Shown: piece after piece, positions 4,067-64,000 of the stretch | Position numbering within the stretch: the first letter of the stretch is position 1 | Layout of the letters: each line of letters opens with the position of its first letter | Origin: an uncultured Bacteroidales bacterium | Lineage (GTDB): Bacteria > Bacteroidota > Bacteroidia > Bacteroidales > Paludibacteraceae | Assembly: GCA_902766045.1 (NCBI GenBank) | Contig: CACXCA010000005.1 | Coordinates: forward strand, 1,704-65,703 | Direction of reading: 5' to 3' | DNA length: 64,000 nucleotides | Program-made: the position numbers and the translations under genes | The notes under the pieces: model-generated | The model's database searches: none | The model's input: the letters and a program-made list of their open reading frames with translations, nothing else | What the model was told of the DNA's origin: nothing

Positions 4067-4183
4067 ACAGGTTGATTTTAGAGCAATCAGTTGGGTTCTT
4101 CAAGGTTAATTTTGAAAGGACTTTTTAACGCAAAATAGTTGCTTTTATCAATATTATTATCTATATTGGTAGTTCTAAAATAG

Positions 4184-5980
4184 ATGAATATGGATCACAT
4201 GAAGATTTGGAAAATTGCATTACACTGTAGGGTAAATATATTGATGTCTGTAGTGCTTATCTTGGCAATAAGTACAGGATGCACAGAGAAAAAGAAGCGA
4301 TGTTACAGTGTGACGTTATGTGAAGAATGGCCGGTTGTCGATGAATCTATAACTTCGAATTATGAGATGGAGGGGGATTCGTCTTACTATGTGTTGGAGA
4401 AATCATCTCGATTTTCCAGCCATTGGAATAAGGTGACGTATGTCTCGTCGGGAGAGGAGCGTTCGTTCAATTCCATCCTCACGCTACCTAAAAGCTCGTC
4501 TTTGTCGTTGAAGAATATTATGTGGAACAGTTTTGCTTCCAAAGTTAGATCGTGGGTATATACAGAAGATAAGGATGGCGCAGTTGATAATGTCAAAGCG
4601 TATGACATAGATGGTAATTTGCTATATACGCAGTATTATAGTCAGAAGGAATACGAGAAAGGTGATTTGAAGAAATGTGTTATAACATACGTGGATGCCG
4701 ATGGTGACACAATTCAATCGTATGATAAAGGAGCCTCTAGAGCTATTGTTCACTTAAATGATAAAGGATATCGAGATATTGTTTATTTCCAAAATGCACA
4801 GGGTGAGAGATGCCGAAACCAGTATGGCTTCGCGAATTTCAAAATAGGATATGACCGTAAGGGTAGTGTATCTGTTCCTTCTGGCTCGTACGATGGTGTG
4901 AACTCACATACTTATATTCTCTTGGACAATGAGAATAAAGAAAAAGTTTCGGTAAATATGGATTTCTTGCGTCAAATTAAGAAACCATATCCTATATGTA
5001 ATATAGAAATAGATGGTGATGTGAAAACGGAACGTTCTGTTTCAGATTCTGTTACGTATGTTACAACCTCTTTTGAAAAAGATGAGACTTCTATTCCGAT
5101 AGATGACAAAACCTATAAAATTGTTAGTACGTATGATGCAAAAGGTCATTTGTTAAAACGTGCATGTCAGAATAAAAATGGTGAGAATGTTTCCTCCATG
5201 CTGGTTACCGTATATACGTATGATGAGTATGGTTTTTTGGTGTTGACCGAATTGCTTTCATCTGATGAAAAACGTCCTGTTAATGGTCCTCTGGGTTGGC
5301 AAAAACGTGAGTATAAATATGATGACAACCATTTCCTGAGTGAGATTATCTATTATGATCCATCAGGCTATATTGTTATGACACCGCATGAATCTTATTA
5401 TGCATTATACCAGGATTATGATGACTATGGACGATTGCTCATGGTTTCTTGTTTGGGACGTAGTTTAAATAGATTTAAAGATGTTTTGAGGAGGAATATA
5501 TATGATTATTATAATGATTATTTTCCTCAGAAGGAATTGTTTTATGATTATGAAGCGGGTAGTTATCCCATATATCAGACACACTATTCATATTACAAAA
5601 ATGGGGATGAGTATTACGTAGGTCATTCTTATTCATTGGAAGGAAAGAATGTTCCAGCATTTGATAATCTGTTTGAGAAGGTGGTGATGTATGATAAACA
5701 AGGGAATCGTATTGTTCGATATTTAGATGATAAAGAAAATATTCTCAAGAGTGATTCATTTATGAATGAATCAGAGGCTTTTTCGTTAAAGGATCAAATA
5801 AAGGGTGAAAAACATCCTCGTTACTGTGTGATAAATACTAATCGCTGGCGATTTGAGGGATATATGCTGAATGGCGAACCTCATGGCGAAGGATGTATTG
5901 AATGGACCGAGTCGGGTGAGGTTTTGGTAGGCAACTTCCATGGATGGAATTTGATATCTTATTTTCAAAAGGTTAATTGA
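4184..5980 (+). CDS. Putative lipoprotein with YD/RHS-type repeats and a MORN-like C-terminus
   Basis: The N-terminus has a hydrophobic segment ending in a lipobox-like LAISTG|C. YD motifs recur (YDIDGNLLY, YDAKGHLL, YTYDEYGFLV, YKYDDNHFL, YDDYGRLL, YDKQGNRIV). The C-terminal GYMLNGEPHGEGCIEW..GEVLVGNFHG is MORN-like. Confidence 0.6.
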   Translation: MNMDHMKIWKIALHCRVNILMSVVLILAISTGCTEKKKRCYSVTLCEEWPVVDESITSNYEMEGDSSYYVLEKSSRFSSHWNKVTYVSSGEERSFNSILTLPKSSSLSLKNIMWNSFASKVRSWVYTEDKDGAVDNVKAYDIDGNLLYTQYYSQKEYEKGDLKKCVITYVDADGDTIQSYDKGASRAIVHLNDKGYRDIVYFQNAQGERCRNQYGFANFKIGYDRKGSVSVPSGSYDGVNSHTYILLDNENKEKVSVNMDFLRQIKKPYPICNIEIDGDVKTERSVSDSVTYVTTSFEKDETSIPIDDKTYKIVSTYDAKGHLLKRACQNKNGENVSSMLVTVYTYDEYGFLVLTELLSSDEKRPVNGPLGWQKREYKYDDNHFLSEIIYYDPSGYIVMTPHESYYALYQDYDDYGRLLMVSCLGRSLNRFKDVLRRNIYDYYNDYFPQKELFYDYEAGSYPIYQTHYSYYKNGDEYYVGHSYSLEGKNVPAFDNLFEKVVMYDKQGNRIVRYLDDKENILKSDSFMNESEAFSLKDQIKGEKHPRYCVINTNRWRFEGYMLNGEPHGEGCIEWTESGEVLVGNFHGWNLISYFQKVN

Positions 5981-5988
5981 GTTAGGTT

Positions 5989-8900
5989 ATGTGTAATAAG
6001 TTGAAATATGTTTTGTTGTTTTTTGTGGGACTATGCTATAGCCAGATGTCTGCAAAAGAGGTGTTGTGGACCGATGTGGTGAAGACAAAACCCTCCACCT
6101 ATGTGGTTAAGGATGATACTATTTTATTAAAGGATAAAAAGGCTGTGGCATGGCTTGCCTCTGTCAGCAATGGATTAAATGGACAAGAAGCATCGACATT
6201 TGAAGGGAAAGTGGTTCGTTTGATGCAGGATGTAGATATGGATGAATATGGATTCCGTTCTTTCATCTCTACTTTTAATGGTGTGTTTGATGGTTGTAAT
6301 CATGTGATTGCCAATTTGAATGATTCATCTAATACGTTTTGCCGTATCAATGAAGGCGTAATCAAGAATCTGGAAAGAAGAGGTAAAGTGGCTGGTGTTT
6401 ATATTAAGGATGTTGATTATCAGTCATGTGCATGTATTGCTGCAGATAATATGGGAACGATAGAAAATTGTCGGGTTCATTACACTGAGATGTCTTTTAT
6501 CTCCTCCATGCAGATTACGGTGGGTGTGATAGCTGCTAATAATTATGGAACAATTGAACGATGCTATACGGAAGGACATTGGATTGTGTCTGGTGCTTTT
6601 TCTGACAAATCATATTTAGGGGGCATCACTGCGTATAATAGTGGTATTATTCGAAATTGTAAAAACAGTGCTATTATCGATGGGTATTGTAAAGCAACAG
6701 GAGGTATTGCTGCGGTCAATCAGGGATATATGGCCAATTGTGCCAATACGGGAGAATTGAGAAGTGGTACTCTCATGGGTGGCTTGTGCGGTGTGTTTCA
6801 GGGAACCAACAGTATGATAGAGAATTGTTATAGTACTGCATCTCAGAATGGAAATGGACTGGTAGGAACGCAGAACGGTGGTATCCTAAGAAACTGTTAT
6901 TCAGCTTCAAAAAATAATGCTATTGGGAAGATTACCAATTCTACTATGAACGAGTACATTTATGTATGTGCAGATTCGGTAGCATCGGTGGAGAAGAATG
7001 TATATACATTCAGTGGTGTTGGACGCTATTGTCAGACAACGGATAGTGTGTTTGGTAAGGTTGCAATGCCTGATGTCTTGAATATGTGGAGCACGTTGCA
7101 AGATAATGATGACTATTCTCGTTGGACAGAGGATCGTGTAGGAATCAATAAAGGATACCCTATATTCACATGGGAATTGGATGATAATATGTATGAAAAA
7201 CCATATGAACTTTGGGTGAATGTTGTAAAAGAGAGACCTGAGACCTATGTAGAAGACGGGGATGTGATATACATTGGAGATGAACGTGCATTTGCATGGA
7301 TGGCTTCAGTGACGAATGGACTGAATGGATGTAAACAAGATGTTTATGGCAACAAGACTATTTATTTGTTGTCTGACGTGAACATGGCTCAATATGAGTG
7401 GACTCCGTTGAAGAATTTTGCAGGTGTATTTAAAGGGAATGATCATGTTGTGAAAGGTATCTTTATTGAAGATACCCTTTCGAATGTTGGTTGTATGGTA
7501 GCTAACAGTGGCGTGATACAGGATTTGAAGTTGCAGAACACCTCTATTTATGTCTATACCGGCATGAATGTGAAAGGTGCTATGTTAGTTGCAGATAACA
7601 AAGGAAAGATAGAAAACTGCGAAACGGATGGAGATATTAGGATGGATGGCTATTCTGCTGACTGTAGCGCATTGCGTCTGGGTGGTATTGTCGGTGTGAA
7701 TACAGGTTCTATCGTTAGTAGTGCATCGTATGGTAAAGTATATTTGAAATATGAAAGTCTCGGTTCCTATCCAACTGCGGAAAATATTGTAGGTGGAGTG
7801 GTGGCCGACAATCAAGGTACAGTCAATACATGTATTAACAATGCTGAAGTTGATGGAATGTGTTACAGTATTGGTGGAATTGCAGGAAGAATCAGCGGAA
7901 AGGGTAAGGTCTTGAATTGTGCAAACAAAGGGTATGTGACCAAGTTGACATCGCCTAATACAACTGTTGTGGGAGGTTTAGTTGGTTATATGCGCGATAA
8001 TGCGACTATATACAACTCATATAATAGTGTATGGGTGGATGGATGCTCGTTGGTGGGTGTCCAGTTTTCAGGAAAGATCGGTAATTGCTATAAGGTAGCT
8101 AGTCCAGTTGCTATAGGTGAATCATCTGTGAATGCATTTGAACATATATATTCATGTGCAGATAGCACTTCCTCTACACAGAATGTCAACTACACATTCA
8201 CGGGTAATGGACGAAAGTGTACACTTGCTGAACCCGTATATCAAACCACTAGTTTTGTCGAAGCATTGAATGCATGGGTGAAAGAACAGGGAAATCCTGA
8301 TTACTTGTCATGGGGAATAGATCTTAAAAAGAAAAACAACGGATATCCAACATTGATTGAAACGGTGAAGAAGGATACAACCTTCTATGTTTGTCCAGAT
8401 GTTGAGTATTATGGTAAAGTATATACATCTGAGGATGATTCTGTAGTTCAGGCTGTTACTTGGAATGATACGTTATATGAAAACGCAAGAATCATTTTGA
8501 AGGTGAAGTTTGATGGGCTTACGATTGTACATAGAAGTTCATTCGTGGTAGGTGAGGTGTTGAATCTGGCCGTCTCAACAGCATTCCCAAGTACATACTG
8601 GAAATTAGAAGATGGAACAAGTTATGCAGGCGTGGTATATCCTATGCCTGTGGATATCTCCTTTATTGACGGGAAGAAGATTACGGTGACAGTATCTAAA
8701 AGTGGTTGTTCTCATGAATTGACAGACTCGTTGGTGGCAAAACGATTAGAGTATGATACATTGATATATGTATGTCCGGAGATTGATTACTATGGTAGAG
8801 AGTTCACGGAAGAGGATGATGGGACCATACAGGTCATAAATTGGAATCGAGAAAAAATTAAAGCAAGGATCGTTCTAAAAGCAAATTTCTCTAAAGTTAA

Positions 8901-9615
8901 GTATAAGGCTCCGTCGTCATTCTGTATTGATGACACTGTATCACTACGTCTTTCAGGTGCCGACAGCTATATATGGAAGTTGGATTCAGATACATTATAT
9001 GTGGATGGAAAGATGCATAAGAAGGACCGTTATGACTGGGTTATGACATCACAGGATGTTGGAATGACGATAGATGTGGCGGCGGTACTTAATGGATGCG
9101 AGCATCATTTCTATGATACAATCCGGACGAAGTCAGAACCTGACATTGTCTATATGGAGGGCTGGGGAGATGTCCTAGCTATTAACAATTCACAAAATAA
9201 ATATATATCCTTCCAATGGTATTTCAATGGAGGAATGATGGAAGATCAGGTGGAGCAGTATTTATATCAGCCAGAAGGATTGTATTCTGGTACATATACA
9301 GCGGTGGCATATAAGGCAGATGGAACAGAAGAGAATCTTTGTTCAATTGTGATTGCAGGTAGTAATGGAAAGGAGAGAAGCATGCAGTTGCAGCCGACAC
9401 TTATTAAAACGTTTGATGCACCATCTTTGATTGGTGATTATGATGTTGAATCTATACAAATGATCTCAGTTGTTGACAGTAAAGGTAACACGGTATGTCA
9501 GGGTAGAGACATGGAGTCTATTGATTTCTCTGGCTTACAAGATGGATTGTATATAATTTGTATAAGGATGTGTGATGATACTATATTTACCTCTAAATTT
9601 TCTATAAAAAGATGA
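5989..9615 (+). CDS. GLUG-motif repeat protein with an internal ~383-aa tandem duplication and a T9SS type-A-like C-terminal domain
   Basis: Signal peptide MCNKLKYVLLFFVGLCYS|Q. GLUG-like motifs recur (GGITAYNSGIIRNC, GGIAAVNQGYMANC, GGLCGVFQG..IENCY, GGIVGVNTGSIVSS, GGVVADNQGTVNTC, GGIAGRISG). The unit starting EVLWTDVVKTKPSTY (~6058) repeats as ELWVNVVKERPETY (~7207). The C-terminus ..DGLYIICIRMCDDTIFTSKFSIKR is sorting-domain-like. Confidence 0.7.
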   Translation: MCNKLKYVLLFFVGLCYSQMSAKEVLWTDVVKTKPSTYVVKDDTILLKDKKAVAWLASVSNGLNGQEASTFEGKVVRLMQDVDMDEYGFRSFISTFNGVFDGCNHVIANLNDSSNTFCRINEGVIKNLERRGKVAGVYIKDVDYQSCACIAADNMGTIENCRVHYTEMSFISSMQITVGVIAANNYGTIERCYTEGHWIVSGAFSDKSYLGGITAYNSGIIRNCKNSAIIDGYCKATGGIAAVNQGYMANCANTGELRSGTLMGGLCGVFQGTNSMIENCYSTASQNGNGLVGTQNGGILRNCYSASKNNAIGKITNSTMNEYIYVCADSVASVEKNVYTFSGVGRYCQTTDSVFGKVAMPDVLNMWSTLQDNDDYSRWTEDRVGINKGYPIFTWELDDNMYEKPYELWVNVVKERPETYVEDGDVIYIGDERAFAWMASVTNGLNGCKQDVYGNKTIYLLSDVNMAQYEWTPLKNFAGVFKGNDHVVKGIFIEDTLSNVGCMVANSGVIQDLKLQNTSIYVYTGMNVKGAMLVADNKGKIENCETDGDIRMDGYSADCSALRLGGIVGVNTGSIVSSASYGKVYLKYESLGSYPTAENIVGGVVADNQGTVNTCINNAEVDGMCYSIGGIAGRISGKGKVLNCANKGYVTKLTSPNTTVVGGLVGYMRDNATIYNSYNSVWVDGCSLVGVQFSGKIGNCYKVASPVAIGESSVNAFEHIYSCADSTSSTQNVNYTFTGNGRKCTLAEPVYQTTSFVEALNAWVKEQGNPDYLSWGIDLKKKNNGYPTLIETVKKDTTFYVCPDVEYYGKVYTSEDDSVVQAVTWNDTLYENARIILKVKFDGLTIVHRSSFVVGEVLNLAVSTAFPSTYWKLEDGTSYAGVVYPMPVDISFIDGKKITVTVSKSGCSHELTDSLVAKRLEYDTLIYVCPEIDYYGREFTEEDDGTIQVINWNREKIKARIVLKANFSKVKYKAPSSFCIDDTVSLRLSGADSYIWKLDSDTLYVDGKMHKKDRYDWVMTSQDVGMTIDVAAVLNGCEHHFYDTIRTKSEPDIVYMEGWGDVLAINNSQNKYISFQWYFNGGMMEDQVEQYLYQPEGLYSGTYTAVAYKADGTEENLCSIVIAGSNGKERSMQLQPTLIKTFDAPSLIGDYDVESIQMISVVDSKGNTVCQGRDMESIDFSGLQDGLYIICIRMCDDTIFTSKFSIKR

Positions 9616-28600: not shown

Positions 28601-31600
28601 GTTACCACCAATTTATATGTGGTGGTTTCTTCTGGTGTCTCTGTCCATGAGTTGATCGTGGATGATAACTGAGTTGTCTCTCCCGTACTGGCTACACTAT
28701 ACCATTGATAACTGTTATAGGCTCCTTCAGTATAGACTTGTACAGGGTCGCCCTTACATATATTACCACTATTATTTGGCGTATTGTCAAGTATTGTAAC
28801 TGTTGGTTCAGCTTGTACTTCATACGATATTTCTGCATTGTTCGTACAAGTTTTGTTATCTGTGGTGAGTGATGCAGTACCTCTATAGGTTACATATCCT
28901 GTTGCGGAGCTGTTGACGGTGATTGGATTTGTACTGTTGCTTATACTTCCCCAATTTTCTCCGTTTTTCTTTTCCCATGTTATGGAAGAACCCGCAGTGA
29001 CATAAGCCGTGATTTTGTTGTCCGTGTTAGGGCATACGTTTTTCTTCTCAACGTCCAATGAGATACTTGGTGTTGGCTTAACACTAATTACAATTGGAAT
29101 TTCAATAGTACATTTGTCGTTCGCTGTATTGTCACCAGCTATGACAGTTAATGTTTTGTCACTGGTTAGAGCTTCGATGTCAGGAATTGATGATCCTGTT
29201 CCTATTTGTTTGTCACCATCCTTCCAAATGTATGATTCAGCTCCACTCAAAGTGATATCTGTTGGTTTGGTTCCACTACAAATTGGGTCGTTACCATTTA
29301 CTGTTATAGTTGGAGCGGTACCTTTTGTAATGGTGAATTTTTTTGTTGTTGGACAGTTATTTGCATTCCAACCTCTCACATATCCAGTTACTGTATTGAC
29401 ATTTTCAGCCAATGTGAACTGATTTGAAGAACCTTGAATACCTGTACTTGTAGAGTCTGCGTCCAACCATAAGAAGTTAGTAGCCGTACCGTTCTCACAT
29501 ACTAGTGTGACAGGTTTGTCAGTACATGCGGCATTGACTTGTCTTACATCAAATGTTGCTTTCGGATGAATGTAAACAGTGACGCTTTCAGTAGATGAAC
29601 AACCTCCATCTGTTGCTGTTGCTGTATATTCGCGAGAAGCCTCTTCTGTGGTTGAAATGGTATGCGTCAATTCTTTGTCCGTTGATGTTTGATTGTTACC
29701 ATATACCCAAGAATAGGTATATGCATCATTTGAACCATATATGCGAATTGGCTCATCAGAACATACAGTATTATCTGGTTTGTCGGTTGTTACAGAAAAT
29801 ACTGGTTTTAGCTTCACTGTTGCATTATATGATTCTGTCGTTTCACATGTTGATAGAGCTTTGAGCCTTGCTGTTACTGTCACCATTTCTGCATGGTTAA
29901 GTGTCATCTCTATTGAGCCACTATTATTAAGTGTCGCATTGGCTCCGTTGTATGTCCAATAGTAATTTACATCATTCGAAAGGTTACTAATGGAGATTGT
30001 GCCTTTGTCTTTTTCACAAACTTCTGTATAGTTAAATTGAATCGTCGGTTTGCTCTTTCTCTCTACTTCTGTTGTGTCATGTCCAATACAGCCGTTCTCG
30101 TCAATGACTTTTAGAACATACGCTGTGCGTTCTTGGGTAGGTGTTAGATCAATAGTTTTATTAGAACCTAACACGAAATCTTCATTTTCGCGAACACTCC
30201 AAGCGTAAGTAGTAAAGTCTTTGTTGGCTTCAAGTGAAATGCTTGAGCCCTCACAAACTAGCGAGCCATTAGGTTTGTTAATGGTGACTGTTGGATTTTT
30301 GTATACACTTAGATTGTAATCATTTTCACTTTTACATTGAAGAGTGCCTTTTGTGGTTGCAACAACATGATAGGTCACTGTTTTGTAAGCATTAGAGCCT
30401 GTGTAGGTCAACTTGTTTTCTCCTTCTGTTAACACGGCTCCTTCTGCTGTATATGTAGAGGAACTGCTACTGCTCCATACGAAATCACAGTTGGCAGCTG
30501 CGGCAGTTAATTGGAAAGGTTCTCCAGAACATATCTTTGAAGCTCCAGTGAAGGATATAACAGGTTTGTCTGTTACGTGAACAGTAACAAATGTATCCAT
30601 CGTACAGCCTGTACTATTTTCTACAGTGATTCTATATGTGGTTTCATCCGTAATATTGTTAAATGTTCGGGACGGACTAGCACCTCCTATACTCTCTGTT
30701 GTAACACCATCTATAGCCCAGATGATCTTTGTTACATTATTAATTTTAATGGTTGCATTATCTCCCTTACATATTGAAATCTCATCCCATTGTGGACGTG
30801 GTTTGCTATTAGGCGTAATCGAGTATGGAGTAGAAGTTCCTTTACAGCCATTGTCATCCGTTCCATCAACGGTGAACGAAATTGGACCTTCAATAGTTGG
30901 TGTGATAGATGTTCCTGTTCTTTCTGATGTTCCATCTTTCCAGATATATGTTCTAGCACCTGATGCAGTTAATGTAACTGGGTCGTTCACACATATATTT
31001 GTGTTATTTGCATTTATATGGATGACTGGCAGAGTATCGACTGTTATCATGATACTATCTTCTCCTTCACAGGAACCATCTAAACCAGTAACTTTGTATT
31101 TGATTTCGCCTGTAGTTGTTGGTGCTACACGTGCTTTGGATGGATCATTAAGATCTTGGGTTAATCCATTATTTACTTCCCATGTGTAGCTTCCATTGAT
31201 ACCTGCTCCAGAAGCAGTCAACGTTGCATAATCTCCTAAACAGATAGCTCTAGAAATTGGGTCTGATGATATCTTTATGTCGGGACGTGCATTGACTGTT
31301 ACAGTTGCTGATTTAGCCTCGCTTGTACAGCCGTTGAGGGTACCTGTGATAGAGTAGGTGCGACTCTCGTTTAACGTCTCAGTTTGATAATTGGTTTCGG
31401 TATTGCTCTGATTTGCGGCTATTTCTGCATGTCCATTCCCTGCCCATGTGAGGGTATATGAAGTTGCATCACCCGTCAATTTGATAGTTGCGGTTTGCTC
31501 GCTACAGATGTTTGCATTGGTGGCTGTGAATGAAGGAATTGGTTTTGTGTTTACAGTGAAGTTTGTCTCACCATAGCAGCCGTTGACATTACTTCCTTTT

Positions 31601-34600
31601 ACGGTATATGAAGTTGTGTCTTCTACAGTAGGACGATATATTGCACCACCTCCAATGATTTCTCCACCTCTGGTCCATTGGTAGTCGTTGTTATCTGCAC
31701 CTGTCGCAGTCATTTGATAACTGTCACCTTTACATACTTCTCCTTCTCCATTGACAAGACCATTGATATAAAGAGTAGGTTTCTTGTTGACGTTGACCTT
31801 GTATGATGCAGATGCAGTACATGCTGTAGTTGCGTCTGTTACGGTTACTGTAGCAGTGGCTTCTGATGCATTTGTTTCTGGCTTTAAGAAGTATGAATTG
31901 GTAACATCAGTAGCGGATCCATTCCACTTGTATGATACTGTATTAGGAGATACAGCTTTTAGTTCGATTGAATCGCCCTCACAGATGCTGCTTCTTCCAT
32001 CTTCATTTGTAATAGTTACAGAAGGTATGTCTTTTACTTCTATATCGATTGTGTCATGTTTTGTACAGCCTGTTGTCGCATTGGTTAATGTGGCTGTGAT
32101 GTGGTATGTTTTTGCAACATTCAATGTGGTGTCAAAAGAGAAAGTATGGAGGTCGCTTCTGCCAATCCATACAATGCTGGCATTTGTCTCTGTTGTGGAT
32201 GCTGTAATGGTAACTTTTTCGCCACGACAGATTGGGTTCTTGCTAGCCGAAAGTGTCAAGTTAGGTTCCTGTGCGACTTTTAAATTGAAATCGACAGGTG
32301 CTGATTCACAACCGTTAGTGTTTTTACCTTTTACTGTGTATATGTGAGGCGCAGAGATTCCTGTGATTTGGAAGTTGTCTGTTTTGTTATCTTGCTCAAC
32401 ATTATCAATATACCATGTCCAACCGTTGCTGCTCATGTTGGCATTGCCTGTTCCGCTCGCAATTAATTTTTCATTGTCACCTATACAATATTCTTTTGTG
32501 TCATCAGGCTCGATTTTGATTGTCGGCTTGGCAACGTATTGTATGAGTTTCGTGTCTGGTGTTGCAGGACAACCATTTTCACCTTTTGCATTCAATGTGA
32601 GTTGAATGTTATGCGTGACATTGTCGATTGTTATGGTGGATCCTTCACCTTGCCATGTTGCGTTGTCGTCACGAGTCCATTTATAGTCACTAATGCCTCC
32701 GATAGCTTTCACTTCCAATGTGCCATCTTCACATATCTCACCCTTGCCATTGTCGATACCGATGGCTTCTGGGGAGAAAACGTCAATGGTTATATCTTTC
32801 TGTGCCGTACAATTTTGTTCTGTGCTTGCAGTCACAACAAATGTCCGTTTGTTTGCAATTGGTGCTGTGGTGATTCTATTTGTTGTCTCACCATCGGTCC
32901 AATTCCATCTGCTTACAGCAGCTTGTGAATTTGTATTTGTGGCTTCGATGACAGTACTGCTGTCTTTACATACGACAGTTTTTGTGGCAGCCAAAGAGAG
33001 TACAGGGGTCTCCTTAGCTGTTACTTTCACCTTGGCAGTGTTGGTACAACCTATGTTGTCATACCCCTTTACTGTGTATGTGGCAGTTTCGTTGATTTGT
33101 GGATTGATAGCGTTGCATGCAGTACATGCATAATCTTTTGTCACATTGTTTTCTGTTGTATAAGTCCATGTGTATGATGTGGCTCCTTCAACTTCAATAG
33201 ACAGAGTGCTTCCTTTACATATAGAGGTGTCTTTTGTAGGAATCTTGATTTTGACATTAGGGTGATGGTTGACAGTGATTGAATATGGGTCACTTATGCC
33301 TACACAACCTTTGTCATTTTGTCCTTTCACATAGAATGTTGTTGAATTTGGATCTGCATCGAAAGTGACAACATCTGTTGTATATAATGGATTTGCAAAA
33401 TTGTTTGTCGTGCTCCATTTGTAGTTGCCAGCGGTTCCTCCTTTTGCTGTCAGAGAGACAGGTGAACCTTCACAATAGGTAGTGGAACCTACGATATAGA
33501 TGTTTGGCGGCGTTAGTACACTTAACGAGTAAGTGGTATCTACCTTACATCCTTCTTTCTCGATGGACAATGTAACAATGTAGTTGAAAATGTTTTCTCC
33601 GTTGAAATCAACGTTTCGATCATAGAATGTGTTGGTGTTAAGTCCGCTTGTCTGATGATTATTGTAAGATGGCGTCCATAAATAGGTGTAGCCTTCGAAG
33701 TTTTCCACTCCTAATTCAACGTCTAGTCCATTACATACATAGTCCTTGTTCGTATCAAGATTTTTGATTATAGGATATTCTTTTGCTCTGATACTTGTGG
33801 TGTCAGGTTCACTCTTGCAACCATGGACATCTTGTGCAATGACTACGAAATAGGTTGTTTGCGATAGAGGAAGTGAGATGTGATCGCCTGTCGCATCTCC
33901 GATATGGCTAGTAAGATCCTCTTTATATAATGTCCAGTTGTATGTGGCATAAGTTTGTCCGTCAACTTCTGCAGACAGTTCAGCAATTGAGTTGACACAA
34001 TATGCGTCTTTTGCTGGTGTAGCATGTACAACAGGATTGTCATATACAGGCATTTTTGCAGTTGTATGACCTTCACAATTATGATCATCCTTGGCTTTTA
34101 CAAGATATGTGTAGGTGCCTGATTGAGTAGAGTGTATTTGGATTTCACTGTTGTGATCTCCTGTGCCACTCATTGGTATTGTGTCAATTGTGGTACTTCC
34201 CGTTCTTTCTACGATTTCAAACCATGAGTAGTCTTTTCCTGTTCCAGCTCCGTTGGCAACAAGTATTGTGTCAAAACCTATACAAAGACCAGCTTCATGA
34301 CCTGTAATAGCCAAACCTGGAGCAGGTCTTACCACGATACTTTTCCTTAGTGAACTTGTACAGCTGATGGTTTTTCCATCTTCTGTATAGTTTTTCGTTC
34401 CCAATAATGTGTAATATACAATACCAGTACCCGAAGGCTTGTGCGTCAGTGATTGTTCTCGTCCAACAGTGTCGTTGTCGAAAATCCATATATATGAATC
34501 TGCATTTGTACCCGTTAATGTTGTGGCGGTATTCTCACACATTTCATCATCTAGGGTAATGCCAATTTCAGGATAAGGTTTTGTCTTGACGGATACAGAT

Positions 34601-57723: not shown

Positions 57724-59643
57724 ATGAGGAACTTATTTCTCATATTGTGTTTGTTGTTGAGTACACCTCTTTATTCTCAGAATGATTCCCTACAAATACA
57801 TGAATTACAGGAGGTGGAGGTCTCTACTTTTCGCCCTATCTCCAATGAAGCTTTTTCGGGGACTACGGTTCTGTCGGCTCCGACGGAGGTGCTGTCTCAA
57901 TATCAAAATGCCTCTCTTTCTGATTATCTGGCGGCAGGAACTCCCTTGTTTATTAAAGAATCAGGTTATGGAATGTTGTCAACGCTTTCTCTACGGGGTA
58001 CTGCAGCTTCTCATACTAAGGTGAATTGGGAGGGTGTCCCTATCAATTCTCAGACGATGGGACAGGTGGATTTCAGTCAGTTGCCTATCCTTTTTTTCGA
58101 TGAAGTGTCGATTTATCCTGGTGGTGAATGTGCAGTTCATGGCAATGGCGCGATTGGGGGAGCTGTTTCTCTGAAAGGAAAGGTCTTGTTTAAGGATACA
58201 ATGTCATTACAAATCCATTCAACAGTTGGTTCTTTTGCCACTCTACACGAAGCAGTGAAATGTATGGTAAGTACCCCCAGGATACATTCCACTACAGCTT
58301 TATATTATAGGAAATCGGACAATGATTTCCCGTTCTATTTTAGGAAGGAAAAACAGTATCAGCAGAACGCTTCTTTTTATGATTATGGTGTGATGGAGAA
58401 TTTGGCATTCCGTATCTCGCCTCGTCAAGTGTTAAGCGCAAAACTGTGGCATACATATTACGATAGGAATATTCAGCCAATGATGCAGAATAACCAGAAC
58501 AGTGCCAAGTATGAATCCATTTCTAATCAATCCACAAAGTTATGGCTGGACTATGCTCATTATACTCCGCTTTTATGGAATGTGCGCTTGGGTTGGCAAG
58601 CCGATGATCAGTTATATGAATCGCATAAGATAGCTACCGATGATTGGTTCATGCAAACTTCGGTGGAGAAGTCATGGAAGAAAAAATCGGTAGTGGATGC
58701 CTCGCTGAAGTTTGGAGGTGAGGTGCATGTGATTCGTCCGGAGGTATATGCTTATTTGGACACATCAGTGGAATGTCGTTCCGATGTATATCTTTTGTCT
58801 AAATTTACTTTTCTGAATAAGCTAGACCTGACATGTAATCTGAGAAAAGATTTTGTGTCGGATCAAATTGTTCCGTTCTCGCCTTCGTTTAGTTTGTCAT
58901 ATTGGTTTGTGAAAAAAGAATTCACACGTTTGTCTGCGGGAATGGGTTGTTCCCGTAATGTAAATGTGCCTACGTTGAATGATAGGTATTGGGGAATGAT
59001 TGACAATCGTGATTTGCGTCCTGAAAAAGGAGCCAACACGGAGTTGAATATTGGATTTGAAAAGATGATACGCAAATATCAGTTATCTGCACAATCATCT
59101 CTTTATCGAAATTCGGTGACAGATTGGATCTTATGGATGCCAAGAGGAAATATTTGGAAACCAGTTAATCTAGACCATGTGTTGGCAAAGGGGTTTGAAC
59201 TCTCTATTGTGCAGAAACTATTGATGAAAAAGAGTTCGGTTTCGCTTGATGTCCATTATGCATATAATCATACGGAGGTGAAGGAAGGATTTGCTGAGAT
59301 GAAACCTTTTGAGAATCGACAGACTCCATTATTGCCGTCTCAAACGCTATCAACTACTCTGTATGGTTCCGTTGGTAATTTTCATTATACACTCCTAGGC
59401 AAATGGGTGGGGGAGCGGAATACGACAGATGTGTTTGAACAGTTAGATCCTTATTTCTTGATGAATGTTGCGGCGGATTATTCTTTCGAGCTGAAAAAAC
59501 GTGATCGGAAGTTTCTGTATGTTATTGACGTAGGCTCTCAGGTGAATAACTTACTGGATGTTGCTTATTATACAATGCCTTATCGAGCTATGCCGATGAG
59601 ACATTTTGTATTTTTTGTAAAACTATATATGAATAAGAATTGA
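57724..59643 (+). CDS. TonB-dependent receptor (small, BtuB/CirA-size)
   Basis: Signal peptide ..STPLYS|Q. Plug motifs 'LSTLSLRGTAASHTKVNWEGVPINS' and 'GGAVSLK' are followed by a long beta-barrel region with alternating aromatic residues. Confidence 0.8.
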   Translation: MRNLFLILCLLLSTPLYSQNDSLQIHELQEVEVSTFRPISNEAFSGTTVLSAPTEVLSQYQNASLSDYLAAGTPLFIKESGYGMLSTLSLRGTAASHTKVNWEGVPINSQTMGQVDFSQLPILFFDEVSIYPGGECAVHGNGAIGGAVSLKGKVLFKDTMSLQIHSTVGSFATLHEAVKCMVSTPRIHSTTALYYRKSDNDFPFYFRKEKQYQQNASFYDYGVMENLAFRISPRQVLSAKLWHTYYDRNIQPMMQNNQNSAKYESISNQSTKLWLDYAHYTPLLWNVRLGWQADDQLYESHKIATDDWFMQTSVEKSWKKKSVVDASLKFGGEVHVIRPEVYAYLDTSVECRSDVYLLSKFTFLNKLDLTCNLRKDFVSDQIVPFSPSFSLSYWFVKKEFTRLSAGMGCSRNVNVPTLNDRYWGMIDNRDLRPEKGANTELNIGFEKMIRKYQLSAQSSLYRNSVTDWILWMPRGNIWKPVNLDHVLAKGFELSIVQKLLMKKSSVSLDVHYAYNHTEVKEGFAEMKPFENRQTPLLPSQTLSTTLYGSVGNFHYTLLGKWVGERNTTDVFEQLDPYFLMNVAADYSFELKKRDRKFLYVIDVGSQVNNLLDVAYYTMPYRAMPMRHFVFFVKLYMNKN

Positions 59644-59716
59644 TTATTTTGTTAATTTTGTACATGCATTTCAATTGAATGATTTTGATGAAAAATTTTT
59701 AATGTAATATAATTAT

Positions 59717-60820
59717 ATGAATCGATTCAGTTTTAAATTTTTAGGATGGGCTGTTGTAGCTTCTGTTTTATTCTTTTCATGTGAAAAGACAGAAGAAGGA
59801 GGAGAAGAATTAGTTCCTCAGAAAACAGTGAAATGTTTGGTTGTTAACCAAGGAAATTACAGCGATGCAAACGGAGGAATCTCTGTTTTGTATAGTGATG
59901 GATCGCTTGTTAATCAAGCTTATCAAAACGCAAATGGTGAACCTTTGGCAGCTATTGTTGAGTCTGCTGTCGATTGTGGTAATACGTGGGCATTGATGTG
60001 CGCTAATGAAGACAAAATTGAGTTTTTGGATAAAAACACATTTAAGTCAGTTGCTGTGGTAAAGGGCATCTCTACTCCACGTTATGGTGCAGTTGTAGGA
60101 AACGCATTGTACGTTACCTCTTCTGATTTCTATAACTTAAGCACCAATGGTTTGTATAAAATAGATCTTTCCACATATAAACAAACAGATTATTATCCGC
60201 TGGAAGGAACTCCTGAAGGTGTTATTTATTATGATGATTGCTTGTGGGTGGCTTCTGCTTTATATAATGCAGAAACATGGGCATCATACGATCCGTATGT
60301 GTGTCGTTTCCAATTGAAAAACGACATGAAAAAGGATGTATATAAGTTGGAAGGCTCTACAATGGCAGCTCGTCATCTTGCAGTGGATAAAAATGGAACG
60401 ATTTGGGCTTCCTTATCAGCTTATGGTATGGATGGACAATTGGTTCAAGTGGATACAACGGAACGTAAGTTGGATAATGAGATTACATTGGCTCAGCTGA
60501 ATTACCCAGGACATATCTATGCATCTAGCACAGGAGATCAGATTTATTATATGACAACAGATGGATATAGTGCTGGAGGTGCTGAAGAAATAACTACGAT
60601 TAAGACGATTGATGTGACTTCAAAGAGCATCACTACGGTTGTGAGTGGAAACGGATTCTATGGCTTTGGTGTCGATGGAACAACAGGAGATATCTATACA
60701 GCAAATGTTAACGGATTCCAGACAAATGCAACGATGTATATCTACACATCAACTGGTGAACAAAAGAATGAGGGTGATCTAGTAGGTGTCGGTGCATGTC
60801 GCTTCCTTTTCCCTAAATGA
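59717..60820 (+). CDS. Surface lipoprotein, probable YncE-like beta-propeller, a putative partner of the adjacent TonB-dependent receptor
   Basis: Lipobox VLFFS|C. Short strand-turn units recur (..LYVTSS.., ..LWVASA.., ..IWASLS.., ..IYYMTT.., ..IYTANV..), consistent with propeller blades. Confidence 0.45.
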   Translation: MNRFSFKFLGWAVVASVLFFSCEKTEEGGEELVPQKTVKCLVVNQGNYSDANGGISVLYSDGSLVNQAYQNANGEPLAAIVESAVDCGNTWALMCANEDKIEFLDKNTFKSVAVVKGISTPRYGAVVGNALYVTSSDFYNLSTNGLYKIDLSTYKQTDYYPLEGTPEGVIYYDDCLWVASALYNAETWASYDPYVCRFQLKNDMKKDVYKLEGSTMAARHLAVDKNGTIWASLSAYGMDGQLVQVDTTERKLDNEITLAQLNYPGHIYASSTGDQIYYMTTDGYSAGGAEEITTIKTIDVTSKSITTVVSGNGFYGFGVDGTTGDIYTANVNGFQTNATMYIYTSTGEQKNEGDLVGVGACRFLFPK

Positions 60821-60843
60821 TCATTGACGATTAAGACGAATAG

Positions 60844-60876
60844 CGGGTTGGACAGTTGTCTGACCCGTTTTTTTTT
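60844..60876 (+). terminator. Rho-independent terminator
   Basis: The CGGGTTGGACA..TGTCTGACCCG stem (with two G-U pairs) is followed by T9. Confidence 0.75.
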
Positions 60877-61003
60877 GTATGTGAATTAAATCTATTTAAC
60901 AAAAATTTGTATTTCGATGGGTTATTTTGTATTTTTGTACGTTGGATATAGTTATAAAATTATTATTTCACAACGTAGTTATTCTAAAAAAACACATATA
61001 ACC

Positions 61004-64000
61004 ATGAAAAAGAAATATACATTACATAAATGTGTTGTGTTTTTATCCCTTTTGCTATCTTGCTTAACTGCAAAGGCAGTTCCAGTACATATTAACTCGG
61101 GAAATCCGGCTTTCCCTTTTCCTCAGTTTTTGGAGTACACCTATGGGGCGAGTCATAGATTGGGCAACTTGGGCACGAAGAATGCGGAAGGTGTTGTCCA
61201 TGCTGAATTGGAGCAGGATATCCGTGACGCCTATCAGGTCCATGCCAACGAGTTCGCCTACACGGGCGATTCATGGGGTGGTTACAAATACATCTGGACA
61301 CCATACAAATCCGCATACGATTGTACCGAGGGTGATGGTTACGGACTCTTGGCCGCTGCCTACATGGGCGATGCGGTGACGTTCAATGGCTATTGGATGT
61401 GCACGCACGACAAGAGACGTAACAGGTCTAAGAAGTATTCGTCTTGCACGGATATCGCACCTGATTATGCGTATGGCCCGTTTGCGATCGGTGATAATGG
61501 CCCTGGTGGTAACACGGCGGCCGACGGAGATGTGGATGTGGCCCTGGCCCTTTATGTGGCGTACAAGCAGTGGGGTGAGTTCATGCGCGATTTGGATGGA
61601 AACATCGTGAATGACGCCTGCGGAAACCCTATCTCGTACAAGGAGGCGATGATTGAGGTGATCCGCGGTCTGGTCGCTTTGAGCACAAAGTTCCCGACGG
61701 AGAACCCTATGCGCGTCAATTCCGGATTGATCGGTTTGGATGGCTATCCGAAGGGCGGTGATACGTGGAACGAGCAGACGCATTTCGTGACGACCGCCAA
61801 TCCTATAACGGTTGATGGCAAGATCTATGATCTGACAAGGGCGGGCGTGGGCAATGCGATGGCACAGGTGGACGTGACGGGCGTTTCCCTCTATCCTGAG
61901 TTCCAGGGAGGTAATAAACAGCATATCGATTACGATGCCCCTGCTTATTTCCGTGAGTTCTGGGAGTTGTTCGAGGAATTGGGCGGTGATCCGTTCGAAA
62001 TCGAGCAGTTCAAGCGCGGTGAAGCCTCTTCCGATTGGCTGATTGGTAACCTGATCTCGAAAAACGCGAAGGCGATCCCTACCGCTGGTTGGAGCGAAGT
62101 GAGCGACGATGGCTCTACCACATCCTATTCGAACTTTAACCAAGGTGAGGATTACCGTTGCTCTTGGCGTACCATCAGCAACCACACATGGCATGGAAAT
62201 CCTGTCAATACATGGAACCCGAAGACGCATAAGGCGGAGTCGGGCTCTAATACATACGAGTATGACGCGGCGGTCCGCTTGTCCGAGTTCCTGAACGACC
62301 CTGCCCATTGGAATGAATCGGCGGGCTCCAAGTGTATCACTTACGGTGACCCTAAGATCCCATACTCGGGACCTGCCACGCTGAATATCCAGTACGACCC
62401 GATGACGGGTATCACCCAGTCTGATTTCTATGTGCTGAACTGGCAGGTGGGAACTGGTACTTTCGCGGCGGTCTCCGCACAAGACTTTGACCTCATGGGC
62501 CTCTTGTATCGCCAGTGCGCCATCGAGTGGGACGTGACGACGGGTGGTGACTGCTACCTGACCTCGGTTTCCAACTATATGCATGGTTGGGCGCGCCATT
62601 TGGGTATGATGGTGACTTCGGGTAATTACCATGCGCCAAGTCAGATGAATCCGTCGGCGAATATGAAAATCTATCGCTCCATCGAGGATTCCGTGACCTA
62701 TTGTTACACAGGTGACCAAATCAAGTTCGTGTTGGATTACCGTAACTATGGTACGGTGGATGCTGAGGATGTGAAGATCGTGGAGAAAGTCCCTTCCGAT
62801 TTCGTCTTCGTTGAGGCTTCCTCCGGAGGTGTGTATGATAAGGCGACACATACCGTCACCTGGAACATAGGAAAGGTGTCGGGATTCAAAAGCGACAATA
62901 AGGAGGGCGTCGAATTGGACTTCAAATCCGGTAATTTGGCGAAGACCATCGGCCAGGTGTGGTATAAACTGCGTGCGGGTGATAAGGCGTCCGGCAGGTA
63001 TTGTACCACGGCGGAAATCACTTGCTCCAATGGCTTGGGATGGACTACCAATGAATATCCTAACTTCAGGACTCCTACCATGCAACGTAACTGCGTGGAC
63101 GTGGTGGCTCGCTCCTTGCTCATATCCAAGGATGTGGACCGCCGTAGGGTGAATGACGGAAACATGGCGACCTACACGATTAAGTTCGAGAACTCTTCGG
63201 AGGCGGGATGGATCGATGGCGGTCGTCCTCGTGTGAATGTCTCCTTCGCGAACGGTCAGGATGGCGCTCGCCTCCAGCTGATGGCTCGCTTGTGGAATGA
63301 TGCGATCGAACCATACATCAACTATGGTAATTACCGTATTTCCTACTATCTGTATGACGCTAGCATAAACTGTTATGCGGGTGAGGGTGATTGTACTACG
63401 GGATGGGGCTTGTCCACTGAAATCTATGAGGGTAACAAGGCTATCGGTAGTGCGGAGGGTATCACGGTCTCCCATGAGAATATTGTCGAAGGTAGTGATG
63501 AGTATGGTAAGTGGAACCAACGTATGTGTATCCAGTTCGCACCGTTGCTGGTGACTACTACTATGCATGTCTCCCGTTACTTCGGAGGTGCGGGTTGCCG
63601 TATCCATAAGGGAGGTTTCTCCCCTATGCGTGGCGTATGGGCTCTGTACCCGAGCAACTATGGAGCGGTGAACTGGAATGACGATTGGTCGTGGAGCGCT
63701 TCGTATAATTCGGAAAAGGATGGCTTGTTTTATCCTGTGACTCCTTCTTGGCAGAAACTGGATGAGAAGGGTAAGTCCATAGAAGAACCAGTGAACAAAT
63801 GGTTGACTTGCGGTTGTACGGAGTCCAGTAAGACAGTGCCAAATATCTTGGTGGAGGAGTATGACGGCTACGTGTGGCGCCGTATCTTGGGCAATGGCCC
63901 GATGGCTGGACGTGACGTGGATAATGTGGTGATCAGGGATACGCTCCCTAAGGGATTGAAGTTCGGCGAGTTCGTGAACGAGTGCCCGTTGAGCGACCCT
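61004..64000 (+). CDS. GC-rich secreted protein, 3'-truncated by the window edge: GH8-like (alpha/alpha)6 glycoside hydrolase domain followed by DUF11-like beta-sandwich repeats. It is NOT in the supplied ORF track.
   Basis: I translated 999 codons from ATG 61004 by hand and found no stop up to nt 64000. Signal peptide MKKKYTLHKCVVFLSLLLSCLTAKA. 'CTEGDGYGLLAAAY' (Glu codon 61328-61330) and 'TAADGDVDVALALYVAYKQW' (Asp codons 61523/61529) approximate the GH8 signatures (SEGQGYGM; A-[ST]-D-[AG]-D-x2-[IM]-A..). From ~62680 on, 'GDQIKFVLDYRNYGTVDAEDVKIVEKVPSDFVFV..', 'GNMATYTIKFENSS' and 'DVDNVVIRDTLPKGLKF' look like DUF11 repeats. An in-frame ATG at 60917 is a less likely alternative start. Confidence 0.85.
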   Translation, partial: MKKKYTLHKCVVFLSLLLSCLTAKAVPVHINSGNPAFPFPQFLEYTYGASHRLGNLGTKNAEGVVHAELEQDIRDAYQVHANEFAYTGDSWGGYKYIWTPYKSAYDCTEGDGYGLLAAAYMGDAVTFNGYWMCTHDKRRNRSKKYSSCTDIAPDYAYGPFAIGDNGPGGNTAADGDVDVALALYVAYKQWGEFMRDLDGNIVNDACGNPISYKEAMIEVIRGLVALSTKFPTENPMRVNSGLIGLDGYPKGGDTWNEQTHFVTTANPITVDGKIYDLTRAGVGNAMAQVDVTGVSLYPEFQGGNKQHIDYDAPAYFREFWELFEELGGDPFEIEQFKRGEASSDWLIGNLISKNAKAIPTAGWSEVSDDGSTTSYSNFNQGEDYRCSWRTISNHTWHGNPVNTWNPKTHKAESGSNTYEYDAAVRLSEFLNDPAHWNESAGSKCITYGDPKIPYSGPATLNIQYDPMTGITQSDFYVLNWQVGTGTFAAVSAQDFDLMGLLYRQCAIEWDVTTGGDCYLTSVSNYMHGWARHLGMMVTSGNYHAPSQMNPSANMKIYRSIEDSVTYCYTGDQIKFVLDYRNYGTVDAEDVKIVEKVPSDFVFVEASSGGVYDKATHTVTWNIGKVSGFKSDNKEGVELDFKSGNLAKTIGQVWYKLRAGDKASGRYCTTAEITCSNGLGWTTNEYPNFRTPTMQRNCVDVVARSLLISKDVDRRRVNDGNMATYTIKFENSSEAGWIDGGRPRVNVSFANGQDGARLQLMARLWNDAIEPYINYGNYRISYYLYDASINCYAGEGDCTTGWGLSTEIYEGNKAIGSAEGITVSHENIVEGSDEYGKWNQRMCIQFAPLLVTTTMHVSRYFGGAGCRIHKGGFSPMRGVWALYPSNYGAVNWNDDWSWSASYNSEKDGLFYPVTPSWQKLDEKGKSIEEPVNKWLTCGCTESSKTVPNILVEEYDGYVWRRILGNGPMAGRDVDNVVIRDTLPKGLKFGEFVNECPLSDP

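Follow-up and report, generated by a model that had tools for sequence, protein, structure and literature searches.

A giant GH8-like gene for a predicted surface protein, its long antisense shadow and a probable import between Paludibacteraceae species

The final segment (positions 61004–64000, plus strand) of a 64,000-nucleotide (nt) stretch of DNA from an uncultured rumen Paludibacteraceae bacterium, which we call the window and whose coordinates are used throughout, holds the 5' part of a giant gene that runs off the window's end. In the open reading frame (ORF) listing over this segment the gene is omitted, and a minus-strand ORF of 778 amino acids (aa) at 61271–63607 stands there alone. 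We find that the plus frame is a real gene and that the minus ORF is not a gene but a non-coding shadow of it. We consider it very likely that the full picture combines a genuine gene for a surface protein of the type IX secretion system (T9SS) with a GH8-like head, its antisense shadow and a recent import from another species. The gene is made of known kinds of elements, a divergent GH8-like domain, a CLIPPER/Ig stalk and the features of T9SS type B cargo, and is not a new system; none of the findings overturns current understanding. The antisense ORF is itself a textbook shadow, and what is less ordinary is that it reports an apparent recent allelic replacement between species.

The plus-strand gene and its predicted product

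Read from the ATG at 61004, the plus strand stays open for 999 sense codons, up to the last base of the window, as an earlier annotation made from the sequence alone (the first-pass annotation) had counted; when the stretch was shuffled 1,000 times, the longest stop-free run over all six frames had a mean of 136 codons and a maximum of 277. The frame is absent from the listing because ORFs running off the source are not reported, and the earlier explanation that a caller requiring a stop codon skips the gene agrees with a listing that holds only the minus ORF there. The stop was found, as had been suggested, by extension beyond 64000, using nine contigs of the same species identified by exact look-up of the upstream DUF5074 protein and its 98% relative. 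Two of them, L086 and L087, contain the complete gene. Over the 999 codons, L086 and the window are 2 aa apart; the L086 stop is at window-extrapolated position ~69,397, which makes a protein of 2,797 aa when counted from the conserved ATG. The window thus holds codons 1–999 of ~2,797, and the gene continues for ~5.4 kb past the window end. A stop-requiring ORF track therefore hides a real gene of ~8.4 kb and displays its antisense shadow instead.

That the plus frame is a real gene is supported by its open length, its homologs, its matches to the GH8 and DUF11 families, the codon position at which related alleles differ, a conserved ATG and a hairpin upstream. The protein search with the plus product gave 296 matches at E ≤ 0.001 among 8,000 candidates scored, mostly from metagenome-assembled Paludibacteraceae and other Bacteroidales and annotated as "glycosyl hydrolase family 8" or "DUF11 domain-containing protein"; the best of these was 77% identical, and relatives at 98% surfaced only in a scan of genome contigs. 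Among the latter are L004 and L005, from two different Paludibacteraceae species of ~50% GC sampled from buffalo and yak rumen; of the 49 sites at which the window and L004 differ, 41 are third positions of plus-frame codons. The ATG at 61004 sits in the context AACCATG, invariant in the aligned orthologs, and opens a signal-peptide-like segment; a second in-frame ATG upstream, at 60917, was rejected as the start, as it would bury the predicted signal peptide and is not the ATG conserved in orthologs. Farther upstream, 3' of the DUF5074 gene, a stem scan located a terminator-like hairpin with a T-run (60842–60879, plus strand; stem at 60842–60869 of 12 pairs, 6 of them G–C, then TTTTTTTGTA), one site against 0.3 expected from shuffles. 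The hairpin separates the DUF5074 gene from the target gene; the target forms a transcription unit of its own, of which 61004–64000 makes up the 5' third.

The product begins with a signal-peptide-like N-terminus, MKKKYTLHKCVVFLSLLLSCLTAKA, followed by a conserved mature start, VPVHINSGNPAFPFPQF (61004–61078, plus strand). The sequence shows three lysines (KKK) as n-region, then a hydrophobic core and, ahead of the conserved mature N-terminus, AKA; residues 2–24 are modelled as a helix, and conservation within the family begins at V28–N34. A lipoprotein signal involving Cys20 was considered and set aside, the cysteine not being conserved in L004, L005 or L013, the last from a low-GC relative.

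Residues ~26–545 (61079–62638, plus strand) are predicted to form a divergent GH8-like (alpha/alpha)6-barrel with large beta-hairpin insertions. Both motifs quoted in the first-pass annotation are present, TEGDGYG at aa 108–114 and AADGDVDVALALYVAYKQW at aa 172–190, and the Pfam GH8 family PF01270 matches aa 104–192 with 28.3 bits (cut-off 24; E 1.1e-6). The AlphaFold model of aa 1–576, built on a 31-sequence alignment, has a predicted local distance difference test (pLDDT) score of 87.6 and a predicted template-modelling (pTM) score of 0.89, and the best 39 Protein Data Bank (PDB) matches in Foldseek are all GH8 (E down to 2e-11; TM 0.56–0.74, normalised to target length), among them chitosanase ChoK, CelA, a beta-1,3-1,4-glucanase, Rex, a xylanase and BcsZ. 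A profile of the family matched PDB GH8 chains at E 9.5e-13 to 4e-5 (5xd0 at 9.5e-13, CelA at 4.8e-9); searched against the PDB as a single sequence, the head gave marginal matches (E 0.003–0.009). By family match, modelled fold and the acid and DGD motifs, the head would thus be placed within GH8 as a divergent member, and the earlier assignment of GH8-like signatures stands.

The candidate catalytic residues, taken from alignment and conservation, are E109 (61328–61330), D174 (61523–61525) and E382/D383 (62147–62152), all on the plus strand. E109 and D174 align to the acid and DGD motifs of CelA, ChoK and BcsZ-type enzymes; all 31 sequences compared, some as low as 45% in identity, have both of these as well as D309 and R389, and 25–26 of the 31 retain E382 and D383. 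A local HMMER match aligns GEDYRCSWRT to ...TRYGWRT of CelA and would put E382/D383 near the catalytic base. The conservation of E109, D174, E382 and D383 appears to fit retained catalysis. Three points weigh against a simple assignment: the PF01270 match spans 83 of 341 profile positions (49–131), identity to solved GH8 enzymes is 12–16%, and the position of the base comes from that one weak local match. The head's signature also deviates at three positions from the PROSITE pattern of GH8. Set beside CelA (1CEM/1KWF), the chitosanase of Bacillus sp. K17 (1V5C/7CJU) and the glucanase of Paenibacillus sp. X4 (5XD0), it shares, in its model, the same barrel (TM 0.71–0.74) and aligns TEGxGYG with its Glu and A-x-D-G-D-x-D-[IV]-A; it differs in size (~520 aa with beta-hairpin insertions against ~360–400 aa), in a base that is not securely placed and in its fusion to a stalk and sorting domain that together exceed 2,200 aa.

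Behind the head, aa 545–999 are modelled as tandem beta-sandwiches, all-beta, with a pLDDT of 84.6. The first of the DUF11-like repeats that had been proposed is a DUF11/CLIPPER Ig-like domain with its Pfam core at aa 568–626 (62705–62881, plus strand; PF01345 50 bits against a threshold of 24.6, E 4.4e-13), and TIGR01451 is also above threshold (40.3 bits against 24), matching two stretches. Further Ig-like beta-sandwich modules belonging to no Pfam family are predicted at ~aa 627–974 (62882–63925), and the start of a second DUF11-like repeat (VVIRDTLPKGLKF...) at 63926–64000 is cut by the window end; the full-length relative in L004 has 2 DUF11 stretches. Foldseek matched the modelled stalk to integrin leg domains, Ig-like domains of PrgB, pilins and the CLIPPER structure 9ifr. 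Over its full length in L086 and L087, the gene encodes GH8, DUF11, three Ig_7 domains and a C-terminal CHU_C/TIGR04131 sorting domain, the last lying beyond the window (in L086, TIGR04131 at 93.8 bits with a cut-off of 35 and CHU_C PF13585 at E 2e-13), and the orthologs in L004 (2,873 aa) and L005 (2,855 aa) have the same layout. The domain matches thus support a protein of ~2,797 aa with a predicted signal peptide, a GH8-like head, a DUF11/Ig stalk and a putative T9SS type B sorting domain.

Such a protein would be exported by Sec, carried over the outer membrane by the T9SS and displayed on the cell surface, where the head may cleave, or at least bind, a beta-linked glycan of plant or microbial origin in the rumen; as judged from domain content, the gene probably encodes a T9SS-exported surface protein with a glycan-cleaving or glycan-binding head. 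One point against this is that no PorP/SprF-like gene was found beside the target in L086, although one could lie elsewhere in the genome; the downstream gene there (332 aa) has no NCBIfam match, and the ortholog in L004 is followed by purB and an MsbA-like ABC transporter. A second concerns activity: the head could have lost hydrolysis and serve as the carbohydrate-binding tip of a fibrillar adhesin. The succession of head, CLIPPER/Ig stalk and sorting domain is the architecture of such adhesins (bioRxiv 10.1101/2025.04.25.650565), and both the divergence from characterised GH8 enzymes and the insecure alignment of the base are in keeping with lost activity. The invariance of E109 and D174 in the 31 homologs and the retention of E382/D383 in most of them argue otherwise, and we regard an inactive tip as unlikely, though deserving of serious consideration.

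The predicted cargo has several known counterparts. T9SS type B cargo includes SprB of Flavobacterium johnsoniae and the large CHU_ proteins of Cytophaga hutchinsonii, and the product resembles these in its giant size, predicted signal peptide, Ig_7 ("CHU_C associated") repeats and C-terminal TIGR04131/PF13585; it differs in its GH8-like head and in having, in L086, no PorP/SprF-like gene detected next to it, and a role in gliding is not implied. The rumen bacterium "Candidatus Paraporphyromonas polyenzymogenes", likewise an uncultured member of the Bacteroidota with T9SS sorting domains on glycoside hydrolases, has T9SS-linked multi-modular carbohydrate-active enzymes, one of them containing GH8 (PMC5831590). 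Its enzymes combine catalytic and carbohydrate-binding modules (CBMs), as in GH8-CBM6-GH11 (PMC5831590), whereas the target has a single divergent GH8-like head, a stalk of ~2,000 aa and a type B sorting domain. The DUF11 domain now bears the name CLIPPER and is described as part of the stalks of fibrillar adhesins; some DUF11 domains are without the residues for intramolecular isopeptide bonds (bioRxiv 10.1101/2025.04.25.650565). The target shares with the CLIPPER adhesins (9IFR) its PF01345 domain, its long surface-protein form, a predicted signal peptide, a head and a sorting domain, but has only two recognisable CLIPPER repeats, its other modules being different Ig-like domains. A literature search on Paludibacteraceae with GH8 and on RGIG7979 found no paper specific to this family, which is abundant and uncharacterised in rumen and hindgut Paludibacteraceae and consists of giant T9SS-type proteins, predicted to be exported, with a GH8-like head.

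The high-GC tract and its probable origin

The gene stands out from its surroundings in composition. The genome is ~38% GC and the window is at 0.36–0.41 elsewhere, while 61500–64000 reaches 51–55%; GC at third codon positions (GC3) is 0.62 in the window part of the gene, 0.28–0.43 in the 26 other window ORFs and 0.56–0.75 in the neighbouring genes of L004 and L005. The change is abrupt. The log-odds of donor against native codon usage is −0.21 at 61004–61183 and +0.27 at 61184–64000, and the similarity to the higher-GC species changes at the same place: gapless from 61075, the window is 97.5% identical to L004 and 97.0% to L005, with 23 mismatches to L004 in 61075–61183 (79% identity) followed by 49 in the next 2,817 nt (98.3%). 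On the right, the boundary was placed through L086, which shows at most 6 mismatches per 100 nt up to ~64,200 and 24–38 per 100 thereafter. Outside these limits the sequence is at most 79% identical to L004 and L005, or cannot be aligned. Within them lies a tract (61184–64000, continuing to ~64,200, plus strand) with a GC of 0.52, a GC3 of ~0.62 and donor-type codons.

The locus in which the tract sits is that of the low-GC lineage. Upstream, an AsnRS/AspRS-type synthetase, ArgRS, two rhomboids, a Plug receptor and DUF5074 form a synteny common to low-GC relatives (L013, L010 and others) and not to L004 and L005, which have a paralog there. Because the tract is near-identical to L004 and L005, has sharp boundaries and donor composition and follows low-GC upstream synteny, we read it as a recent cross-species allelic replacement, in which ~3.0 kb of the resident gene would have been exchanged, via homologous recombination, for the ortholog of a ~50%-GC Paludibacteraceae lineage. 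Mosaic genes of this sort, formed by homologous recombination between species, are known from the pbp genes of Streptococcus and Neisseria; shared with them are a near-identical block between species, sharp drops in identity and a chromosomal gene at a conserved locus, and the differences are partners ~12 GC points apart, flanks diverged by more than 20% and a gene for a putative surface glycan-active protein or adhesin.

All the sequences are metagenome-derived and the join falls in a conserved block of the gene, so an obvious concern is an assembly chimera in which two co-occurring rumen species were joined at a conserved stretch of orthologous genes. The left junction, however, was recovered in eight other contigs (L080–L087), from eight sample or assembly accessions whose independence is judged by accession label and of three kinds (Logan, k141-named and ENA scaffolds). 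L081 is 99.98% identical to the window over 58005–63488, L082 and L083 are 100% identical, and L084–L087 are 98.2–98.9% identical overall. Three allele types occur among them. The window type and the L084 type both hold the full 3-kb tract and are set apart by 21 nt differences within it and 28 in the flank beside it. The third, L080, is from the same species (flank ~99.7% identical to the window) and is a mosaic, L004-like over ~61300–62200 (~1 kb) and then continuing as a low-GC allele. L086 and L087 traverse both junctions; beyond the tract their low-GC sequence is 99.7% identical to L080, and they finish in low-GC downstream genes.

A few observations nevertheless favour a chimera. L082 and L083, from different ENA assemblies, break off at the same base, 61546, a hint of strain heterogeneity in those assemblies that weighs against a clean recombinant; the shared end is probably an assembly-graph branch where co-existing alleles diverge. 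Reciprocal-looking mosaics exist, L009 being a high-GC host with a low-GC patch, and exact-pattern scans of Joint Genome Institute (JGI) metagenomes, with patterns for the flank (60791–60829) and the catalytic-motif region (61319–61359), found no match and hence no independent copy. Set against these are the recurrence of one junction across contig kinds, in two full-tract alleles and a shorter L080 patch, the passage of L086 and L087 through both junctions, and the distance of the tract from both candidate donors (~1.7–2%), by which it is not simply made of their reads. The multiple contigs support a genuine junction, as far as assembled sequences can speak to it, and we consider a chimera improbable.

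Still less probable, in our judgement, is that the high GC and GC3 were not imported but arose by native selection on the gene, for instance on codon bias linked to expression or on amino-acid composition. The orthologs of low-GC relatives are also richer in GC than their flanks (L013, 0.43–0.48 against ~0.39), and the 3' module of the same gene reaches a GC of 0.60 with no identified donor. Native selection is hard to reconcile, however, with boundaries as sharp as those at 61184 and ~64,200, with an identity of 98.3% inside that includes synonymous sites and falls below 80% outside, or with the same-species strain L080, which has a low-GC allele (GC3 0.28–0.40) from ~62,200 on. The 3' third itself, at 6200–9500 of L086 (window-extrapolated ~65,700–69,000; GC 0.60, GC3 0.75), is not closely matched by any of the fetched loci, of which L089 comes nearest at 75%, and may be a second import, older or unsampled.

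Allelic replacement would not be confined to the window's lineage. L006 and L013 are 96.2% identical over 4 kb from just after the signal peptide, and L012 and L059 are 99.8% identical over 1.6 kb, the similarity in both pairs being confined to the gene; the low-GC allele of L080 is 96–100% identical to the low-GC patch of L009 from ~63,000 on; and L004 and L005 are 97–100% identical in the first 3 kb and 73–85% in the rest of the gene. In L009 and L016 (10000–14000 of each), both high-GC hosts, the pattern is turned round, the 5' 4 kb of the gene being low in GC (0.39–0.46) within contigs of ~0.50–0.55. The locus looks like a recombination hotspot because near-identical cross-species segments confined to the gene link these four further pairs, and we think it likely that the first ~3 kb of the gene are a cassette swept by homologous recombination across Paludibacteraceae species in herbivore guts. 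That such exchange spans even genomes ~12 GC points apart seems to us equally likely. If so, it would indicate that the exposed head is under strong selection common to several species, by phage, host immunity or substrate specificity, and the exchange of the head region between species bears on fibre degradation and on the diversification of surface proteins in gut Bacteroidota.

Two neighbouring features of the locus were noted. Directly upstream of the giant gene, higher-GC lineages carry a short-form paralog of ~1,080 aa with GH8 and DUF11 (6626–9877 in L004, 4–2814 in L005 and ~6600–9500 in L006 and L009), at the place where the window's low-GC lineage has DUF5074 and the Plug receptor. 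Between the window and the strain of L084–L087, whose flanks are otherwise 99–100% identical, a patch of the Plug/TonB-dependent receptor (57930–59430) is only 88–94% identical and the DUF5074 gene (60241–60508) has 26 differences in 270 nt; both patches look like strain-level recombination.

The minus-strand ORF as a shadow

The offset between 61271 and 61004 is divisible by 3, so the minus ORF (61271–63607) is exactly codon-aligned antisense to the gene, as the first-pass annotation had it. The frame has 909 open codons before the window ends, and in L086 the open run reaches 1,094 codons (61271–64553). The minus product has no match in Pfam or NCBIfam, in line with the earlier remark that it lacks recognisable motifs; its description as rich in Arg, His, Thr and Val is roughly right (R 12.2%, V 9.1%, T 8.5%, H 6.2%), with Ile at 10.9% and Leu at 9.4%. 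When the minus product was run with HMMER against 1.84 billion representative proteins, it matched 2 only, P0143 (952 aa) and P0144 (218 aa), both of which map antisense to the same gene family or its paralogs and, on that mapping, appear to be shadow ORFs let through by gene callers and not an independent family. Public protein collections thus already hold shadow "proteins" from this gene family, and the strand mis-calling that had been foreseen for annotation pipelines has taken place in relatives. All the checks that had been proposed come out for the plus strand, among them the comparison of both translations by homology, with 296 matches and recognised families on one side and two antisense artefacts on the other.

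The substitutions tell the same. Against L004, the plus frame has 39 synonymous and 6 non-synonymous changes and the antisense frame 5 and 40; against L005, the counts are 49 and 11 in the plus frame and 9 and 51 in the antisense frame, where four changes create or remove a stop. The antisense frame contains 3 stops in L004 and 5 in L005, alleles 97–98% identical to the window, and 9–51 in homologs at 63–77% identity. The minus ORF is a shadow because it has no independent homologs, its open frame is not preserved among alleles and substitutions fall without regard to it. The content of RNY (purine–any–pyrimidine) codons, tried as a strand discriminator, was dropped, the fraction being equal in the two frames (0.35 and 0.36). 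Of the earlier characterisation as the long shadow of a GC-rich, RNY-biased gene, the shadow is borne out, the richness in GC holds only relative to the surroundings, and the RNY content does not set the strands apart.

The length of the shadow is a matter of codon usage. Codon-aligned antisense stops arise only from sense TTA, CTA and TCA, and antisense shadow ORFs are found where these codons are rare. Their share is 4.1% in the other window genes, 1.06% in the neighbouring genes of L004 and L005 and 1 of 939 codons in the target after 61184; the shadow is long because the imported donor codon usage almost never has them. In L086, no antisense stop occurs at 61271–64553, and in the native 5' end and the adjoining low-GC segment stops come mostly every 1–50 codons, the gaps within that downstream segment being mostly 4–50. 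The antisense frame would accordingly be open over the imported tract, ending ~350 nt past it, and closed elsewhere in the gene; as the open stretch coincides with the tract, the shadow ORF marks it. What sets this case apart from usual shadow ORFs is that the bias belongs to a putatively foreign 3-kb tract in a 38%-GC genome and not to the genome, and an unusually long antisense ORF in a low-GC genome can therefore flag foreign, higher-GC codon usage.

Donor usage does not account for everything: 7.5 antisense stops are expected in 909 codons and none is found (P ~5e-4), a point against a purely compositional origin. Since the antisense frame is broken in L004 and L005, we read the zero-stop run as a chance extreme picked out by scanning, not as an outcome predicted outright. 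This excess of open length, in a run of at least 909 codons, and the presence of related antisense ORFs as predicted proteins in public collections could also speak for a real overlapping antisense gene, but with no domain matches, database matches that are antisense to the same family, 3–5 stops in near-identical alleles, overwhelmingly non-synonymous substitutions and an open stretch that coincides with the imported tract, we give that explanation practically no weight.

Promoter candidates and the rest of the window

A weak lead for the promoter of the giant gene is TATTTTTG at 60930–60937 (plus strand), 66 nt 5' of the ATG, which matches TAnnTTTG, the Bacteroidota −7 promoter consensus; the window as a whole has 72 matches to it and 67 expected, i.e., no enrichment. 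A scan for sigma-70 promoters gave 2 sites, both on the wrong strand and at chance level.

Elsewhere, the window contains a second giant T9SS type B cargo, a single ORF of 8,283 aa at 13675–38526 on the minus strand. Its C-terminal 1,200 aa match Ig_7 (E 1.2e-23) and the CHU_C sorting domain (E 1.6e-14), and PKD/Ig-like domains are found in its N-terminal part; for T9SS machinery in the genome this cargo is evidence of an indirect kind only. Two plus-strand ORFs of 187 aa each (30626–31189 and 31784–32347) lie antisense within it, and their equal length suggests internal repeats with a period of ~1.16 kb. At the start of the window, 23–9615 (plus strand) encodes large putative surface proteins, including an ORF of 1,347 aa with an MBG domain and one of 1,208 aa with GLUG motifs, after which comes a protein carrying an outer-membrane beta-barrel domain.

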